This document shows positions 1 through 7,388 of a stretch of 7,566 nucleotides of DNA, piece after piece; the first letter of the stretch is position 1, and every line of letters starts with the position of its first letter. Made by a program: the position numbers and the translations under genes. The notes beneath the pieces were generated by a model that had not been told where the DNA came from, ran no database searches, and saw only the letters and a list, made by a program, of their open reading frames with translations. The stretch is from Raphidiopsis brookii D9 (GTDB lineage Bacteria > Cyanobacteriota > Cyanobacteriia > Cyanobacteriales > Nostocaceae): the NCBI GenBank assembly GCA_000175855.1, contig ACYB01000043.1, positions 1 through 7,566 of the forward strand. Reading direction: 5' to 3'.

Positions 1-375
1 AGTTACTGAATAGTAGTACATTTTCTGTAGGGCAGTTTTGCCCTGTTTTTCTATTGTCACTTCCTCAATACGTTCATAATCCTTAATTTTTGTTGGCGTA
101 GACCTCTCTTCCTTAAAAGACTGATAAGTGAAATCAAATAAAGATTTTATTCCTTCCCAATTTATAGTTAACTTAACTCCATGTTGATCCAGATCACTCA
201 ATTCAAGTATTAAATTTCCCCTGTCTTCAAACCCAGGTTGTTTAAATAATTCCTGAACCATTAGTACCAGACCTGCAAGTCCCGCACGATGTTGACAAGA
301 AGGTAATTCAGTTAACTGGTAACACAATTCAATTACAACTGATTTTAAGTCTGGTTTTACATTTTGTTTGTTCAT
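1..375 (-). CDS. 5' part (125 codons, open to the window edge) of a probable Cascade large-subunit gene (Cas8/Cmx1-like)
   Basis: My manual minus-strand translation from ATG 375-373 gives MNKQNVKPDLKSVVIELCYQLTELPSCQHRAGLAGLVLMVQELFKQPGFEDRGNLILELSDLDQHGVKLTINWEG...YYYSVT with no stop down to base 1. It is missing from the ORF track because it runs off the window. The start overlaps the cas3 stop (ATGA, 375-372). The position directly after cas3 and the HRAGLAGL-type N-terminus resemble my recollection of Cmx1-type large subunits. The family assignment is recall plus synteny, not an alignment. Confidence 0.5.
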   Translation of the reverse strand, partial: MNKQNVKPDLKSVVIELCYQLTELPSCQHRAGLAGLVLMVQELFKQPGFEDRGNLILELSDLDQHGVKLTINWEGIKSLFDFTYQSFKEERSTPTKIKDYERIEEVTIEKQGKTALQKMYYYSVT

Positions 376-1604
376 GTTCCGTATCCATATTTCTGGCAAT
401 AATACTTGCTATCGGCGATCGCCAAATATTTGGGTAAATCATCCGGGCGATTTTGTGCATAAGACCGAGCTATTTTTTGAGGAATAGGTAAAACATAACC
501 CTCAGCATCAGGATCTTTATTTTCCCTGAGTTTTAAAAATTTGTCTATATCGGTATCTAAAACTGCATTAGTAGAATAATCATCCGTCTCTCGGAAAGAT
601 TCAGAAGTTGCCCAATATCCAGCTTCTACAAAATAGCTAGAAGCTTCTATTCGTTCTCGCGGGGAATGGTTTTCTAGTTGTTGAGCTAATTGTTTTTGAG
701 AGACTATACCCTGCACATCACAAATAAAATTTTTAGCACTTGTAATTTCCTCTTTATTATAGGGTTTGACATTAGGTGGTTCATAAATCCAGATTTGAGA
801 ATGTTCTATAAGTCCATGACGGTTAGATCTACCAAACCGTTGAACCATTGATGAAATTGGTGCTATCTCTGTAATTAAAACATCCGCATCCAAATCTAAA
901 GACATTTCACAAACTTGAGTAGTAACAGCAATCACACTTTGTTTTTGAGATTGAAAAGCATTAACTGTCTGCTGATGTTTATCCTTTCGGTCTTTTAATG
1001 TAAACCGACTGTGATAAACAATAATTCCAGTATTGTCTCCCAATATACTTTCCAGTTCCCTCGCCTTTTGACGACATCTGTCAATAGTGTTCACTACCCA
1101 GAGCACTCGTTTACCTTGTTTAAAAGCCAAAATAGCCTCAGTCTCAGCAATAGCCTGATCGCAGGAGCTTATTAAGTATCTAGGTCGATTTTCCGCCTTC
1201 TCTAACTCTTCCATTTCCTGTTTTTCTTCTGTGGGAAATACAGCCAATGCTAAACCTAGCTGTTTTTTTTCCAAGTCTGAGGTTAAAGCCTTCTTTCTCG
1301 AAGTAGATAATGTTGCAGTCATACATAAAACGGGAATATCAAAATGCTCTAAGAAACTGAGTAAAGACTCAAACATTTTCGGAGAAAAACTGTGAACTTC
1401 ATCAATAACTACCACAGAATCAGCCAAAACTGGTAACAAAACTAAGCCACTATAACTATGACTTAAAAAAGAAAAGAAACTGGTCAACAGTAGCTGAAAA
1501 AAAACGCTTTCCCCAAAAACCCAAAGCATAAAGACGCTCATTCGTGGTGAAATCCTTACCTTCTGTTGATTCAGAAGGATTTTCAAACATGGCCTTGAGT
1601 TCAT
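372..1604 (-). pseudogene. cas3: Cas3 fragment (frame segment E): helicase motifs II-VI and the C-terminal domain. Only the part downstream of ~1467 is genuine coding sense.
   Basis: From ...FLSHSYSGLVLLPVLADSVVVIDEVH (DExH), MTATL, VLWVVNTIDRCRQ, VYHSRFTLKDR, VTTQVCEMSLDLDADVLITEIAPISSMVQRFGRSNRHG. The first ~45 residues of the listed ORF (MNSRPCLKILL...) are out-of-frame readthrough of segment D. Confidence 0.8.
415..422. repeat. HIP1 octamer GCGATCGC (extended form GGCGATCGCC, 414-423)
   Basis: Exact match read in the sequence. HIP1 is a highly iterated palindrome characteristic of many cyanobacterial genomes. Confidence 0.9.
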
Positions 1605-1656
1605 AAGGTGCTGTTCCCGTTAACAGACTACCATCAGTTTCCGGACACCATGACAC
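1456..1656 (-). pseudogene. cas3: Cas3 fragment (frame segment D): helicase motifs Ia to Ic
   Basis: The frame is open upstream of the listed Met to ~1702 and reads LYPTRGTATEGFKDYVSWCPETDGSLLTGTAPYE...FWGKRFFSATVDQF. The stop at 1456 follows a 1-nt shift in the A-rich tract 1465-1479. Confidence 0.7.
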
Positions 1657-1702
1657 ATAATCCTTAAATCCCTCCGTAGCCGTTCCCCTTGTTGGATATA
1701 AA

Positions 1703-1837
1703 AAATTACACGACCAACAGCATAATGTTTAACAATACCTTGCTGCCATTTATAGGCAAAAATGGTCTTACCTGTTCCACATCCACTAAGTAACAACAAC
1801 CGTGAATTTAACCCAGTAGCTTTTTGCTGGAACTTTT
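1703..1837 (-). pseudogene. cas3: Cas3 fragment (frame segment C) carrying helicase motif I. It is not listed in the ORF track.
   Basis: My manual translation of the third minus frame gives KKFQQKATGLNSRLLLLSGCGTGKTIFAYKWQQGIVKHYAVGRVIF, with Walker A GTGKT encoded at about 1765-1779. Sense is lost after the A6 run 1700-1705 and resumes in the next frame as LYPTRGTATEGF. Confidence 0.7.
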
Positions 1838-2415
1838 TTTAATTCAAAGAGCTTGCCTGTTTTCTTTTCAATCTGTTGGTAACGAGGTTGCAGAATTTTA
1901 TTTTCAATTTCCTCCGGTGTTATTGGTTCCCTATGTAAAGTTTCCATAACCCATTGATCAATGGTATCAGAACCCTGAGTACGAAAAACTCCTGATGCAA
2001 CCGAGTCAGCAACTATTAAACCAGATTTTACCCCTAATAATAAACTACGACGTTGAGAGTTTCTTCTAATTTCATAATTTAAATCATCAGCTGCATCCCT
2101 AATCCTATTATAAACAGACTGCCATATCTTATCTGTAATCCTCAATTGAGAGGGCAATTTGGGAATTCCCCTTAAACTAACCAGTTGTGAACTAACTAAT
2201 TGTGCCACCCTCATTAAAATTGCTTCTATTTGAGGATGTTCTAAATAAAGTTTAACTTCCTGCACACAAGTGCGCGATCGCCCAAAAGGTTTAACGGAAC
2301 CTTTTTCAGCAGGAGATGCTTGTAAATGATGACATAATACCGATGCTGTTATCACATCCAAATCTAGTTTGCTAGGCTCTAGCCATTGAATCATAGAAGG
2401 GAAGTAAATAATCAA
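1786..2415 (-). pseudogene. cas3: Cas3 fragment (frame segment B): rest of the HD domain plus the linker to the helicase
   Basis: The open frame extends upstream of the listed Met to ~2454 and reads KISQALRHEWISALIIYF..., joining the preceding ORF at the T7 run 2451-2457. It contains CHHL and GLIVADSVASG (HD motifs). It ends ...GKLFELKK, where the sense moves to another frame at T7 1834-1840. Confidence 0.75.
2274..2281. repeat. HIP1 octamer GCGATCGC
   Basis: Exact match read in the sequence (tgcGCGATCGCcc). Confidence 0.9.
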
Positions 2416-2428
2416 AGCACTAATCCAC

Positions 2429-3358
2429 TCATGACGTAAAGCCTGACTGATTTTTTTCCCCTTTTATCAAGGCATCAAACTCCTCATTAGCTTTGCCAAT
2501 ATCATGAAATAGAGCCGCAACTCTCATATGTATCAGAAACTGCTGGGGATCTTGAATTTTAAAAAAGCGACACCAGTTGCGCAGGATCCTATCTTTAAAC
2601 ACTGCCAAAACTGCCACCTCTGTATCTTTGAGATGCTGCTCTAGAGTCAGAAGTTCACGACCAGAAACTGCACTCTTAGCTAATAAGTTGTGTGGCATCA
2701 TACTTAGTCTGATAATAAGTTTTTTATTCGGGACATTAGGATAAAAAACACCGCATCCCAGTCGACGTTTACCACCCAGTCCACTAACCTGTAACTTAAT
2801 TGAATCTTCCTCTGTTAAATCAGAAACCATCACAGTAAACCCTACAATCGTGTAACTTCTTTTTTGAATGGGCTTATTAATTTTCAATGTCAACCGTTTA
2901 GGTTCTCCCTGATGATTAGCCAAGATACCAAGGTTAGCATGAATTTCTAAGGATTCTAACTGCCTATTGGCGGCTTGTAGAAAAGACATTGGTTCAGTAT
3001 AGCCTTTAATAGTAACTAGCCTAGACTTTAGGGATTCACATCCCTGTATAGTTTCTAATTTGGGGCTTCCTAAGCTTATTTGATATTCTCCAACAGTTAA
3101 AGTTTGCCCCACTAAAGGATAGACCAAAGATATAGCATCCACTGGAATTCTTAGAAAAAAACGCGAACTGGAAGTTAGACTAATACTTCCTTGTTGGTCG
3201 GGAATGCCCGATATAGTATTAATTGCTAGTCCCTGGAGATTATGCAGTTCAGGAATCTTCCGGCAAAGACTCCCTAAAAGTCTATAATTATGGTCGGCAT
3301 GAAGTTTTGTTCCCTTTACAGGAAACACCAACTGAACCAGTGATATCATAGTCGTCAT
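2429..3358 (-). CDS. cas6: Cas6-family crRNA endoribonuclease domain (Cmx6 / I-MYXAN-like, residues ~1-215) reading in frame into the first ~90 residues of the Cas3 HD domain. It ends at a frameshift-induced stop.
   Basis: This is the 309-aa track ORF. The N-terminus LVQLVFPVKGTKLHADHNYRLLGSL, the block SRLVTIKGYTEP..FLQAANRQL and the C-terminal glycine-rich loop LQVSGLGGKRRLGCGVFYP are typical of Cas6/Cmx6 RAMPs. It is followed by MMPHNLLAKS...LTLEQHLKDT...AALFHDIGKANEEF, which looks like a Cas3 HD N-terminus. Confidence 0.8.
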   Translation of the reverse strand: MTTMISLVQLVFPVKGTKLHADHNYRLLGSLCRKIPELHNLQGLAINTISGIPDQQGSISLTSSSRFFLRIPVDAISLVYPLVGQTLTVGEYQISLGSPKLETIQGCESLKSRLVTIKGYTEPMSFLQAANRQLESLEIHANLGILANHQGEPKRLTLKINKPIQKRSYTIVGFTVMVSDLTEEDSIKLQVSGLGGKRRLGCGVFYPNVPNKKLIIRLSMMPHNLLAKSAVSGRELLTLEQHLKDTEVAVLAVFKDRILRNWCRFFKIQDPQQFLIHMRVAALFHDIGKANEEFDALIKGEKNQSGFTS

Positions 3359-3486: not shown

Positions 3487-3563
3487 CCCCAGCATGCCAC
3501 TAACTATACAATTAGTTACATTTATTATCAATGATCCGGGAATATTAAAACCATAATTATTCC

Positions 3564-4535
3564 TTACATTTGATAATTTTTCATTAATTGTTCAACTTCA
3601 GACTTCACCAAATCTACTAATTCAGGTGGTTCTTTTACTACTGCACCTCCTCCATATCCCAACACCCATCTTTTCAAATCATTTAGTCCTGCTACTTCCA
3701 TCTCCAAAGTTATAGATCCATCAGTATGTTCCTCAACTTTTTGAGTTTTATGCCAACGTCTCTCTATTATATATGGACTTGTGGATCGACTAAACCAGAT
3801 TTTTACTAACTTCGCCTCTCCAGTTCCAACCTCTATTTGAAATGTTTTACCCAGATATTCTTGAACATTAAAGGTTTTATCTCTGATAAAGCTACTATTT
3901 AATAATTTCAATTTTTTGATTCTATCTACCCGAAAGTAGCGCATATCTTGTCTGTTGTGACAAAATCCGATCATATAATAATTTGTACCTCTATCAATAC
4001 GCAAAACATAGGGATCTATGATTCTTTGTGAAACCTGATCGCGACTTGCCGTGTAGTATTCTATTTTTACTCTTACAGTCTGATTAACTGCTTTTACTAA
4101 GCTATGACAGATTTCAGTATCAAGATGGGTTTCTGCTCCCCCGGTAAAAATAATTCTTTGCTCTCCTACTTCTTCTCTATTAATTCGGATTTTATCCGGT
4201 ATTCTTTCACTTAAACGCAAAATTGCGGAATCTAAATCGTCCACATAAGCACTGCCAGTATAAGATTCGAGCATTTTTGCTCCTAGCATTATCGCAGACA
4301 GTTCTCTCATAGACAGATTAATACTAGGCAATCGCCATTCCGAGTCTGTATAGTGATGTCCCTTAACAGAACAAAACGCTAGGGGAGCATTGAATCGGTC
4401 ACGCAAGAATGCCAAATCATTGCGTATTGTGCGGTCACTAACCTCCAATCTTTCTGCCATCTGCTGGGTTGTAAATCTGGTTCGCTCTCTAATCATTGAG
4501 TCTATTTCCAGTAGTCTTTCCAAATGTCTTGACAT
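3564..4535 (-). CDS. WYL-domain transcriptional regulator (N-terminal winged HTH, central WYL domain, C-terminal WCX-like extension); CRISPR-associated by position
   Basis: This is the 323-aa ORF. GGAG lies 7 nt upstream of the ATG. The HTH region reads FTTQQMAERLEVSDRTIRNDLAFLRDRF. The WYL-domain core reads VKIEYYTASRDQVSQRIIDPYVLRIDRGTNYYMIGFCHNRQDMRYFRVDRIKKL. The C-terminus reads LKRWVLGYGGGAVVKEPPELV. Confidence 0.85.
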   Translation of the reverse strand: MSRHLERLLEIDSMIRERTRFTTQQMAERLEVSDRTIRNDLAFLRDRFNAPLAFCSVKGHHYTDSEWRLPSINLSMRELSAIMLGAKMLESYTGSAYVDDLDSAILRLSERIPDKIRINREEVGEQRIIFTGGAETHLDTEICHSLVKAVNQTVRVKIEYYTASRDQVSQRIIDPYVLRIDRGTNYYMIGFCHNRQDMRYFRVDRIKKLKLLNSSFIRDKTFNVQEYLGKTFQIEVGTGEAKLVKIWFSRSTSPYIIERRWHKTQKVEEHTDGSITLEMEVAGLNDLKRWVLGYGGGAVVKEPPELVDLVKSEVEQLMKNYQM

Positions 4536-4661
4536 GTATATACTCCATATATATTTCCTTATCTTAGTGAAAAGGATAAACTAAGCACCCGGCAAAAAAC
4601 TTTCCGCCTCAAAAAAATTCTCACGAGTTAACATAGTTTTATCTATCTTAATACTTTTTAT

Positions 4662-5135
4662 GTGCTCAACACCTAATGGCATCAAAGGTTTAAACACATG
4701 GGTACTGGTCAAATCTATCCCAAAATCCCCCACGTGCTCAACGCCTAATGGCATCAAAGGTTTAAACACTAATAGACGAAGCTGCTAGCGTTGTTGTTGC
4801 TGGTAAGTGCTCAACGCCTAATGGCATCAAAGGTTTAAACACGCCATCTATTACTGCTGTATGTTGAACAAACTTTACGTGTGCTCAACGCCTAATGGCA
4901 TCAAAGGTTTAAACACTGCTTAGAGAGGGAGCAGCACAAGAATCAGCATTGGAGTGCTCAACGCCTAATGGCATCAAAGGTTTAAACACTGTCAGAAGCT
5001 CTAATAGGAACAACAAACCATTCGTGTGCTCAACGCCTAATGGCATCAAAGGTTTAAACACGAGATTGATTTTTTGAATCTCGCGAGATTGATTTTTTGG
5101 TGCTCAACGCCTAATGGCATCAAAGGTTTAAACAC
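4662..5135 (-). CRISPR. CRISPR array with 7 repeats of 36 nt and 6 unique spacers, inferred to be transcribed on the minus strand
   Basis: The plus-strand repeat is GTGCTCAACGCCTAATGGCATCAAAGGTTTAAACAC (minus sense GTGTTTAAACCTTTGATGCCATTAGGCGTTGAGCAC). Repeats start at 4662, 4734, 4807, 4881, 4954, 5026 and 5100. Spacers are 36, 37, 38, 37, 36 and 38 nt. Six repeats are identical. The repeat at 4662 has G>A at 4671, as expected for a leader-distal terminal repeat. Confidence 0.97.
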
Positions 5136-5291: not shown

Positions 5292-5398
5292 AATGCAAGC
5301 ACCTCTCCTAACCCCAAAAATGCTCAACCCCATACTCTCAAAGACTTTCTGGTTTTCCTTTCGCTCTTTTTAACTTAACAATCTACAGTGCTTGCATT
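5292..5398. repeat. Perfect 11-bp inverted repeat pair, AATGCAAGCAC (5292-5302) and GTGCTTGCATT (5388-5398), separated by 85 bp
   Basis: This was read directly from the sequence. The right arm overlaps the cas2 stop codon (5397-5399). A third partial copy, TAAATGCAAG (5197-5206), is a 10-bp direct repeat of 5290-5299 and supplies the -35 of the candidate array promoter. Confidence 0.7.
5320..5352 (-). repeat. Decayed CRISPR-repeat relic (D2) that keeps the repeat's 3' end
   Basis: The minus-sense sequence ...AAAGTCTTTGAGAGTATGGGGTTGAGCAT aligns to the repeat ...AAACCTTTGATGCCATTAGGCGTTGAGCAC. The last 12 nt match 10/12, including GTTGAGCA 8/8. The CTTTGA block is also conserved, with a 2-nt gap. 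Confidence 0.5.
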
Positions 5399-5690
5399 AA
5401 AAAATTTTGTAACATTGATCTGGTAACAACCAAGCATTAGGACGATTATACTTCCGTATATCGTTCACGCACTGATTAGAAAGACGAATTAGTAGTAAAC
5501 TGTCCTCATCCGTTAGTATTCTTTCCAATTCCCATCTTAGTTTTTCCCGCGATCGCATCGTTAACCAAGAGCGAAAAATTGAGTATTGCACTCTGTCACC
5601 ATATCCTTCCAACAACTTATATACCTTTCTCCAACGCTTTGAATCGCGAATGTCATAACAAATGAGGTAACAATTTCTGTTTTCTGCCAT
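5397..5690 (-). CDS. cas2: Cas2 (adaptation)
   Basis: This is the 97-aa ORF. It begins NCYLICYDIRDSKRWRKVYKLLEGYGDRVQYSIFRSWL, the classic Cas2 N-terminal beta-strand with catalytic Asp and the ferredoxin-fold pattern. It starts 9 nt after the cas4-cas1 stop. Confidence 0.93.
   Translation of the reverse strand: MAENRNCYLICYDIRDSKRWRKVYKLLEGYGDRVQYSIFRSWLTMRSREKLRWELERILTDEDSLLLIRLSNQCVNDIRKYNRPNAWLLPDQCYKIF
5549..5556. repeat. HIP1 octamer GCGATCGC
   Basis: Exact match read in the sequence (cccGCGATCGCat), inside cas2. Confidence 0.9.
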
Positions 5691-5699
5691 AGCTACACA

Positions 5700-7388
5700 T
5701 TATCTTAATATTAGATTTCCGAATAACCCCGGTTCACCACTCCATTCCTTTTCTAGCAGGCGTACTTCTAATTCAAATAGACGACGATAGGTAAGAGAAT
5801 ACCCTGTCACCGGATGTTTCCAAGTTTCTTGTTTACGACGCTCATATAGTTCAACAAATTTACGTTTTCCAGGTTCACTTAACCATACCTGTTCTCTTCT
5901 AATTTCAAAGTCTTCTTTTGGGTGCCATTGGCCTCGATTAATTGAAGACATAACCGTCATGTCAACTAACGGTACTCTGAATATTTCTAATAAATCTAGA
6001 GCCAAAGGAGCAGCTTGAGAACGAGGTTGGTGGTAAAAGCCTAATGCACCTTCCAACCCAACAGTCAAAATGGCATTCATTACATCTTTTAATACCAAAG
6101 CATAACCAAAACTCAACAGAGCATTAAATCTGTCCTTAGGTGGTCGACGATTCCTACCATTAAAATAGAGTTCATCTACCACATCTGCAACAATTAAATG
6201 TGGTAAGGCACTAAAATATGACGCAGCAATATTTCCCTCCAATCCTAACAATGATTCTAAAGATTTTGCTTGAGGAACTTGTTTAAGCATCGTTTTAATT
6301 TGGGCAATCGACTTGTGTAAATTTTCTGGTACCTGAGTTCTACCTCTAGTTCCCCGCATTAAAAATTTACGCTGACCTTGACCTCGACATAAGACCAATT
6401 TCCTGGCTAATTCTAAACAAAATGCAGGGTCGCTCAATGCAGTATATTGACGAATACGACGTTGAATACTACCTCTTCGATTATCAAAACTTCCAACATA
6501 CCGACCTCCTCCAGAAATAAAATGTATCCCTATATCTTGATGTGCACAAAAATATAATGCCTGAGTGGAAATTTGAGAGAAGCTGTGCAAAACTAACTGT
6601 CCTATTTGACTAGCTGGAATATTTTCTATGGGCTGATTACGACGATTAATTTTGATTTGTGATCCCGTCTTTCCTACTAATGCACCGGGCTCTAAAATAT
6701 GAATTATTAAACGTTCATCATCTTCTGGAAAAAGGCGAATAGGTTGCCATTCTTTATCATGAGTCAGTCTAGCTTCTTCTGGTAAACAGACAGGTGCTAA
6801 GGAACAACGAGCACATAGTCTCTCATTTTCTGTCACTGGTGGTCTGTAAGCTGATTCCCTCAAATTACGCGCTTCTTTAATTGCTTGATGAACACTTTCC
6901 CTACCAGAATGATCTAAAGGCACATGAATCAATATGTTATCAGTATGGTAACGAATACGACCCTCTTTTACTGTAATCCCCAGTGCAAATTCCAGTAATA
7001 GTGCATAAGCTAGGATTTGTAATTTGTCACTCTCCCATGCTTGAGGTTGTTTATTTTCATCTCTGTGACAATAACCACGCTTATGCTCGTATGGAATAGT
7101 TTGCCCATCACGGGTACGAAGCGCATCCAATCGTCCACGTAAACCTAATTCCTCGCTTTCAAGAAATAGTTCTTCCCAGACTTCATCTTCTTGTTTTTCC
7201 AGTTCTGTGTGTAACCTGCGTCCAGCAAATATGGCTGCATCTTGAGTATATAGCTCCTCAACCTCTTCCAAATAAAATAATCGTCGACAGTAGGCTAGTG
7301 CATGAAGCGCAGAAACTCGTATAGTCTTTGATATATCCTGCGGTGATGTTTTTTTTACGCCTTCTGATTCTAAGTCCATAACTTCCAT
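5700..7388 (-). CDS. cas4-cas1: Cas4-Cas1 fusion protein: N-terminal RecB-like Fe-S nuclease and C-terminal Cas1 integrase
   Basis: This is the 562-aa ORF. The Cas4 part has YCRRLFYLEE (first Cys), GRLDAL...IPYEHKRG (D...ExK nuclease motifs), QILAYALLLE and CARCSLAPVC (three C-terminal Cys). The Cas1 part has LIIHILEPGALVGKTGSQIKI, LGLEGNIAASYF, RRPPKDRFNALLSFGYALV, GFYHQPRSQAAPLALDLLEIFR. Confidence 0.93.
   Translation of the reverse strand: MEVMDLESEGVKKTSPQDISKTIRVSALHALAYCRRLFYLEEVEELYTQDAAIFAGRRLHTELEKQEDEVWEELFLESEELGLRGRLDALRTRDGQTIPYEHKRGYCHRDENKQPQAWESDKLQILAYALLLEFALGITVKEGRIRYHTDNILIHVPLDHSGRESVHQAIKEARNLRESAYRPPVTENERLCARCSLAPVCLPEEARLTHDKEWQPIRLFPEDDERLIIHILEPGALVGKTGSQIKINRRNQPIENIPASQIGQLVLHSFSQISTQALYFCAHQDIGIHFISGGGRYVGSFDNRRGSIQRRIRQYTALSDPAFCLELARKLVLCRGQGQRKFLMRGTRGRTQVPENLHKSIAQIKTMLKQVPQAKSLESLLGLEGNIAASYFSALPHLIVADVVDELYFNGRNRRPPKDRFNALLSFGYALVLKDVMNAILTVGLEGALGFYHQPRSQAAPLALDLLEIFRVPLVDMTVMSSINRGQWHPKEDFEIRREQVWLSEPGKRKFVELYERRKQETWKHPVTGYSLTYRRLFELEVRLLEKEWSGEPGLFGNLILR

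Follow-up and report, generated by a model that had tools for sequence, protein, structure and literature searches.

Single-base homopolymer differences that break cas6 and cas3 in the type I-MYXAN CRISPR-Cas locus of Raphidiopsis brookii D9 are probably sequencing miscalls

The described loci closest to the one considered here are the type I-MYXAN CRISPR-Cas loci of Cylindrospermopsis/Raphidiopsis raciborskii, such as those on ITEP-A1 contig LUBZ01000054 and on JAPTYE010000049, which have the same gene order as the locus of Raphidiopsis brookii D9 at 99.3-99.5% nucleotide identity. The D9 locus occupies an entire contig of 7566 bp, hereafter the window, and is a known, ordinary type I-MYXAN (I-B-like) system that shares with the raciborskii loci (Cas3 WP_061547240.1, Cas6 WP_061547241.1) the 775-amino-acid (aa) insertion allele of Cas3 as well as identical WYL regulator and Cas4-Cas1 proteins. 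The difference is that D9 alone has five insertions or deletions (indels) of ±1 base in cas6-cas3 and one more between genes. The broken cas3 is not a novel feature, and comparison with related sequences indicates that the frameshifts are very probably homopolymer miscalls of the 2010 454/GS20 assembly, not a biological inactivation. They resemble the 454 and Ion Torrent miscalls that create false pseudogenes in being exclusively ±1 changes in homopolymers with almost no accompanying substitutions. Were the breaks real, D9 would instead resemble systems that bind their targets without degrading them, namely Cas3-less or inactive type I systems (type I-F and I-B CRISPR-associated transposons, CAST) and type IV systems. 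CAST and type IV systems, however, lack cas3 as a stable, conserved architecture, whereas here cas3 is intact in every relative and the breaks are confined to one error-prone assembly.

Read on the minus strand from the ATG at 3358 to the stop at 372, a region of 2987 nt, the open frame passes from 0 to 1, 2, 1 and 2. The first-pass annotation, made from the letters alone, was right that these frame changes are real in the deposited minus-strand sequence, with four edits giving 2985 nt without an internal stop. They are not due to chance, because the repaired 994-aa product is 99% identical to intact proteins. Six indels are unique to D9 within the window (3553, 2726, 2465, 1840, 1706 and 1475), five in cas6-cas3 and one intergenic, and all six are changes of one base in a homopolymer:

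Positions 3552 to 3553, between the WYL gene and cas6: intergenic indel, GG in D9, where 13 relatives have GGG and one has GAG.
Positions 2720 to 2725: indel 1, 6 bases against 7 in all relatives, fusing cas6 to the cas3 frame.
Positions 2462 to 2465: indel 2, 4 bases against 3 in all relatives, the first frameshift of cas3.
Positions 1834 to 1840: indel 3, 7 bases against 6 in all relatives.
Positions 1700 to 1705: indel 4, 6 bases against 7 in all relatives.
Positions 1472 to 1475: indel 5, 4 bases against 3 in all relatives, the last frameshift of cas3.

The lengths found in relatives agree with the earlier placement of the shifts at 1834-1840 and 1700-1705, and for the last shift, for which 1465-1470 and 1472-1475 had been offered, they place it at the second site and not the first; the repaired junction there reads FLSFLSHS. 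The first cas3 shift had been assigned to the 7-base T run at 2451-2457, a run that has the same length in relatives, and the extra base lies in the neighbouring run at 2462-2465, so that the repaired peptide is ALIKGKKISQ and not ALIKGEK followed by ISQ. Only four indels had been recognised, the fifth, at 2720-2725, having been overlooked; it is the base missing there that makes cas6 read into the cas3 frame. Orthologous tract lengths had been suggested as a check, and the relatives do have in-frame lengths, although these are 3, 6, 7 and 3 bases, together with 7 at 2720-2725, and not the set that had been listed.

The same comparison separates what had been taken for a single 994-aa open reading frame into a cas6 of 227 aa and a cas3 of 775 aa. 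All relatives encode Cas6 (224/227 aa) and Cas3 (770/775 aa) in two distinct genes, which occupy different frames and have 26 nt in common. The true cas6 stop is a TAA at 2678-2676, 26 nt into cas3, and a Cas6-Cas3 fusion protein was rejected because of the two-gene arrangement of the relatives. The 120 homologues listed for the 994-aa product are all Cas3, mostly of about 770 aa (range 631-841), and cover at most 78% of it, in its last part. Alignment to Cas3 and Cas6 profiles, also suggested earlier, finds both families as predicted, in two proteins and not in one.

If the frame-breaking differences are miscalls, the five in cas6-cas3 and the intergenic one would have arisen from 454/GS20 errors in homopolymer length, and both the 227-aa Cas6 and the 775-aa HD-helicase Cas3 of the organism would be intact. 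The foremost alternative is a genuine and very recent D9-specific inactivation in which slipped-strand mutation struck five times independently, as might happen in a laboratory lineage deficient in mismatch repair, and which would have destroyed cas3 and altered the C-terminus of Cas6 while Cascade and adaptation remained, so that targets would be bound and not degraded. The first-pass annotation had left assembly error and recent cas3 inactivation unranked; the evidence that follows supports the former and makes the latter unlikely. In favour of inactivation, the deposited sequence does contain the frameshifts, and the remaining genes of the window are intact.

Against it stand first the relatives. 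Fifteen related contigs spanning cas6-cas3 were collected, including four metagenome contigs, ITEP-A1 (MiSeq), PAMP2012, GCA_026929835.1 (L006), CYRF and six Logan contigs; 13 were aligned jointly, and L016, from Logan run SRR24999971, was aligned separately. None of the six D9 indels is found in any of the 15, so that the disruptions are reproduced in no independent assembly or related strain. This includes L016, which is the sister of D9 since the two have seven D9 alleles in common (3431, 3026, 2830, 2527, 2519, 1849 and 360), and in which cas6 (227 aa) and cas3 (774 aa) are intact and all six tracts have the common length. A further contig of run SRR24999971 (L007) carries two more D9-only single-nucleotide polymorphisms in cas4-cas1 and differs from D9 at 1 of 2178 bases. 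The annotated frameshifted fragments occur on no contig except the 7566-bp contig of D9, which also speaks against inactivation, and the 410-aa C-terminal cas3 open reading frame has no match on record. Four variants of the D9 Cas3 and Cas6 as repaired from the relatives were looked up for an exact match, and the collection contains none of them. One Logan contig (L013, ERR2868526) has 6 bases and not 7 at the equivalent of 2451-2457, and its cas3 is split into 95 aa and at least 306 aa.

Inactivation is further opposed by the scarcity of substitutions beside the indels. Over the approximately 3.8 kb common to D9 and L016, the terminal branch leading to D9 holds six indels and two unique substitutions (3209 and 96), and another 2.2 kb, in cas4-cas1-cas2, contains no indel and one more substitution unique to D9 (6998). 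Within cas6-cas3 there are five indels and a single unique substitution, which is synonymous, against 12 substitutions and no indel in the L006-type lineage. In bacteria the ratio of indels to substitutions is typically about 1:5. Five frameshifts that had accumulated would lead one to expect many more substitutions than are observed: at that ratio five neutral indels predict about 25 (Poisson P of one or fewer ~4e-10), and even at 1:1 the probability is only ~0.04. Three of the seven substitutions between D9 and L016 in cas6-cas3 change an amino acid, which is no excess. With counts this small, the sequences reveal neither surplus substitutions nor a dN/dS near 1, and no signature of relaxed selection is apparent on the D9 branch.

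The sequencing method provides the source of error that the miscall reading calls for. D9 was sequenced on the 454/gs20 platform at 27x and assembled with Newbler, and the small-insert Sanger reads numbered 188 for D9 against 3909 for CS-505 (PMC2821919). That all six discrepancies in this 454 assembly are ±1 changes in homopolymers is the pattern of a flow-chemistry artefact, and the method is known for precisely such errors, which tells against inactivation. So does the parallel pattern in an Ion Torrent assembly: CYRF (L008), sequenced on the Ion PGM (PMC5658482), has six unique +1 homopolymer insertions in 4.7 kb (4618, 2866, 2749, 2726, 1505 and 735), which split its cas6 and cas3. The CYRF insertions sit at runs other than those of D9, and the indels of both are absent from the remaining assemblies. 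No such indels occur in ITEP-A1 (Illumina MiSeq), PAMP2012, L006, or the Logan and metagenome contigs, the sole exception being L013 with one different indel, and CYLP, the other Ion Torrent assembly, has similar gene splits. Judged from these sequences, private homopolymer indels in number appear to track flow-chemistry assemblies only, and not phylogeny.

Similar breaks are seen in housekeeping genes of CYRF outside the CRISPR-Cas locus, where in the neighbourhood of bioB (L097) aroB is split (87+265 aa against 365 aa), gcvT is truncated (88 against 384 aa) and the PBP/DUF4912 gene is split; these three genes are whole in ITEP-A1, L006 and PAMP2012 (L098-L100). The BioB of D9 (EFA72383.1) is intact. 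The intergenic T/A run at 4611-4617 has 7 bases in D9 and in the metagenome contigs L001, L002 and L004, 8 in L006-type strains and 9 in CYRF, and this polymorphism indicates that homopolymer length also varies naturally outside coding sequence and is not purely an effect of technology.

That the D9 indels cluster in cas6-cas3 is expected, because long runs are concentrated there: these genes hold 12 of the 15 coding homopolymers of at least 6 bases in the window, plus about half of the shorter runs, and were errors to strike run by run, the other genes would escape every indel with a probability of ~0.14. The location of the long runs thus accounts for a clustering that might otherwise have pointed to inactivation. 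The first-pass annotation correctly recorded that cas4-cas1, cas2 and the WYL gene are intact and that the long runs at 1263-1270, 1497-1504 and 7349-7356 remain in frame, their lengths being equal to those of Illumina-sequenced relatives. The intactness of the neighbours is nonetheless weak evidence given where the long runs lie, and it was rejected as an argument for gene-specific decay.

Several points weigh against miscalls. Short runs (3 versus 4, or 3 versus 2 bases) account for three of the six indels, and differences in such runs are less typical of consensus errors at 27x and count in favour of inactivation; this half of the indels, in runs of 3-4 bases, together with the high density of six indels in about 6 kb for a 27x 454 consensus, is where D9 departs from typical flow-sequencing miscalls. 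Natural slippage likewise favours homopolymers. Genuine decay of cas genes is known in the clade, as shown by a 10-nt cas1 deletion in ITEP-A1 and CYRF and by CYLP, which is without the effector module, and it too lends inactivation some support. Most likely the indels arose during sequencing or assembly and the D9 cell line does not carry them, though this origin is something that we infer and do not observe directly.

It is accordingly quite improbable that the Cas3 of D9 was truly knocked out by five slippage mutations, perhaps in a mutator episode in culture. Were it so, Cascade, the WYL regulator and the full adaptation module would persist in D9 beside a Cas6 whose C-terminus is changed, and this toxin-producing, bloom-forming cyanobacterium would have a system that binds DNA without interference. 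Such a finding would be a modest case of recent loss of interference, and no new kind of system. A further reading, highly improbable and rejected, is that of functional recoding or phase variation: the tracts would serve as contingency switches, or slippage during transcription or translation would correct them and allow some full-length Cas3 to be made. In its favour, the indels are located in A/T runs, the Logan contig L013 is variable at another run (2451-2457), and in AT-rich endosymbionts frameshifts at long poly(A) tracts can be rescued by slippage of transcription. Against it, five separate corrections would be required, two of them in runs of 3-4 nt, the other relatives, metagenomes from several sites among them, do not vary in tract length, and neither a slippery-site/stimulator architecture nor a conserved out-of-frame arrangement in any relative was seen.

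Once repaired with the relatives as a guide, the D9 Cas3 differs by 6 aa from the intact WP_061547240.1 and by 1 aa from the protein of L016, and it has the composition of a canonical Cas3. Pfam matches comprise Cas3_HD, DEAD, ResIII, Helicase_C and Cas3-like_C_2 (PF22590, E=7e-32). The helicase core scores 168 with cas3_core TIGR01587 (cut-off 102.45), and the HD domain scores 24.7 with PF18019 (cut-off 23.1) and 48.2 with TIGR01596 (cut-off 43.45). All HD and helicase motifs are present, as had been reported from the letters: HDIGK at residue 66 and CHH at residue 123, followed by GCGTGKT (motif I), PTRGTA (Ia), DEVH (II), TAT (III), TQVCEMSLD (V) and QRFGRSNR (VI). A phmmer search matches the repaired protein to the solved structures 4q2c, 8wtk and 7tr8, and the HD regions of Cas3 in the Protein Data Bank align to its residues 60-108. 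The HD phosphohydrolase and the superfamily 2 helicase core with the Cas3 C-terminal domain that define a Cas3 are thus both in place, and what the deposited sequence lacks is one uninterrupted open reading frame, four frameshifts lying within cas3 while the gene is intact in relatives at 770-775 aa. The two lengths of Cas3 are distinguished by a 15-nt in-frame near-tandem duplication at 2190-2204 (CACAATTAGTTAGTT beside CACAACTGGTTAGTT), which inserts QLVSS. The 775-aa allele occurs in D9, ITEP-A1, PAMP2012, L006, CYRF and several Logan runs, and the 770-aa allele in the metagenome contigs L001-L004.

The gene order of the locus is cas4-cas1, cas2, CRISPR array, WYL regulator, cas6/cmx6, cas3 and cmx8 onward, with the genes on the minus strand:

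Positions 5700 to 7388, minus strand: cas4-cas1 fusion, intact, 562 aa, scoring 571.3 with TIGR03983 (cas1_MYXAN, cut-off 358), with Cas4 N-terminal.
Positions 5397 to 5690, minus strand: cas2, intact, 97 aa, scoring 55.4 with TIGR01573 (cut-off 24.5).
Positions 4661 to 5135: CRISPR array flanked by cas2 and the WYL gene, with seven repeats, each about 37 nt long, spaced 72-74 nt apart.
Positions 3564 to 4535, minus strand: WYL-domain transcriptional regulator, intact, 323 aa, with helix-turn-helix (HTH), WYL and WCX Pfam matches.
Positions 2676 to 3358, minus strand: cas6/cmx6, 227 aa after repair, matching PF09559 (E=1e-61) and scoring 212.6 with TIGR02807 (cut-off 98.85).
Positions 372 to 2701, minus strand: cas3, five frame segments as deposited and 775 aa after relative-guided repair.
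Positions 1 to 375, minus strand: first 125 codons of cmx8/cas8b, matching TIGR04413 (E=8e-24), the gene continuing past the contig end.

In NCBIfam profiles, the combination of Cas6/Cmx6, a MYXAN-type Cas1 fused to Cas4, and Cas2 identifies the locus as type I-MYXAN. The score of cmx8 with TIGR04413 is 84.2 against a cut-off of 150, only 125 codons of the gene lying within the window; relatives encode a 557-aa Cas8b, with cas7 and cas5 downstream. The exact Cas4-Cas1 protein of D9 is present in three other assemblies, and its WYL protein matches WP_009344289.1 at every residue. The stop of cas3 and the ATG of cmx8 share bases (ATGA, 372-375), and cas6 ends 26 nt within cas3 (2676-2701); these overlaps suggest, from the arrangement of the genes, that cas6, cas3 and cas8 may be translationally coupled. 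The D9 contig breaks off within cmx8, after 375 nt of this single-copy gene, although the gene is uninterrupted in relatives; the break is possibly a sign of thin local 454 coverage. In the CRISPR array, the repeat nearest the WYL gene (4661-4697) has an A in place of a G (CAACACCT against CAACGCCT), and contigs of relatives from other samples end at the array.

In GenBank the cas6-cas3 region of D9 is split into a "hypothetical protein", a "conserved hypothetical protein" and a 371-aa "Cas3", and the fragments of the window are EFA71881.1, EFA71883.1, EFA71884.1 and EFA71885.1. A literature search for an earlier description of D9 cas3 found none. The main value of the comparison is one of caution, given that the 2010 D9 draft is still in use for comparative genomics of Cylindrospermopsis/Raphidiopsis: to call D9 Cas3-deficient, or to credit it with a Cas6-Cas3 fusion, would most likely spread a sequencing error. 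The same caution applies to gene-content claims drawn from the Ion Torrent assemblies CYRF and CYLP.

Changes of another kind affect the adaptation genes of other strains. ITEP-A1 (Illumina) and CYRF (Ion Torrent) have in common the 10-nt deletion in cas1, at window positions 6473-6482, and unrelated sequence replaces the 5' end of cas4 and the promoter (upstream of 7374), with the result that cas4-cas1 is split into 217+245 aa in ITEP-A1 and 159+245 aa in CYRF. These changes are seen with two independent technologies, so that the decay of the adaptation module in the two strains looks genuine. In C. raciborskii CYLP (NPIK01000002, 10001-13300), cas4-cas1, cas2 and three CRISPR repeats are followed by nadC, and the WYL-cas6-cas3-cas8-cas7-cas5 module is absent. 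The cas2 of CYLP encodes 102 aa because the run corresponding to 5399-5404 of the window is longer by one A, probably through an Ion Torrent error.

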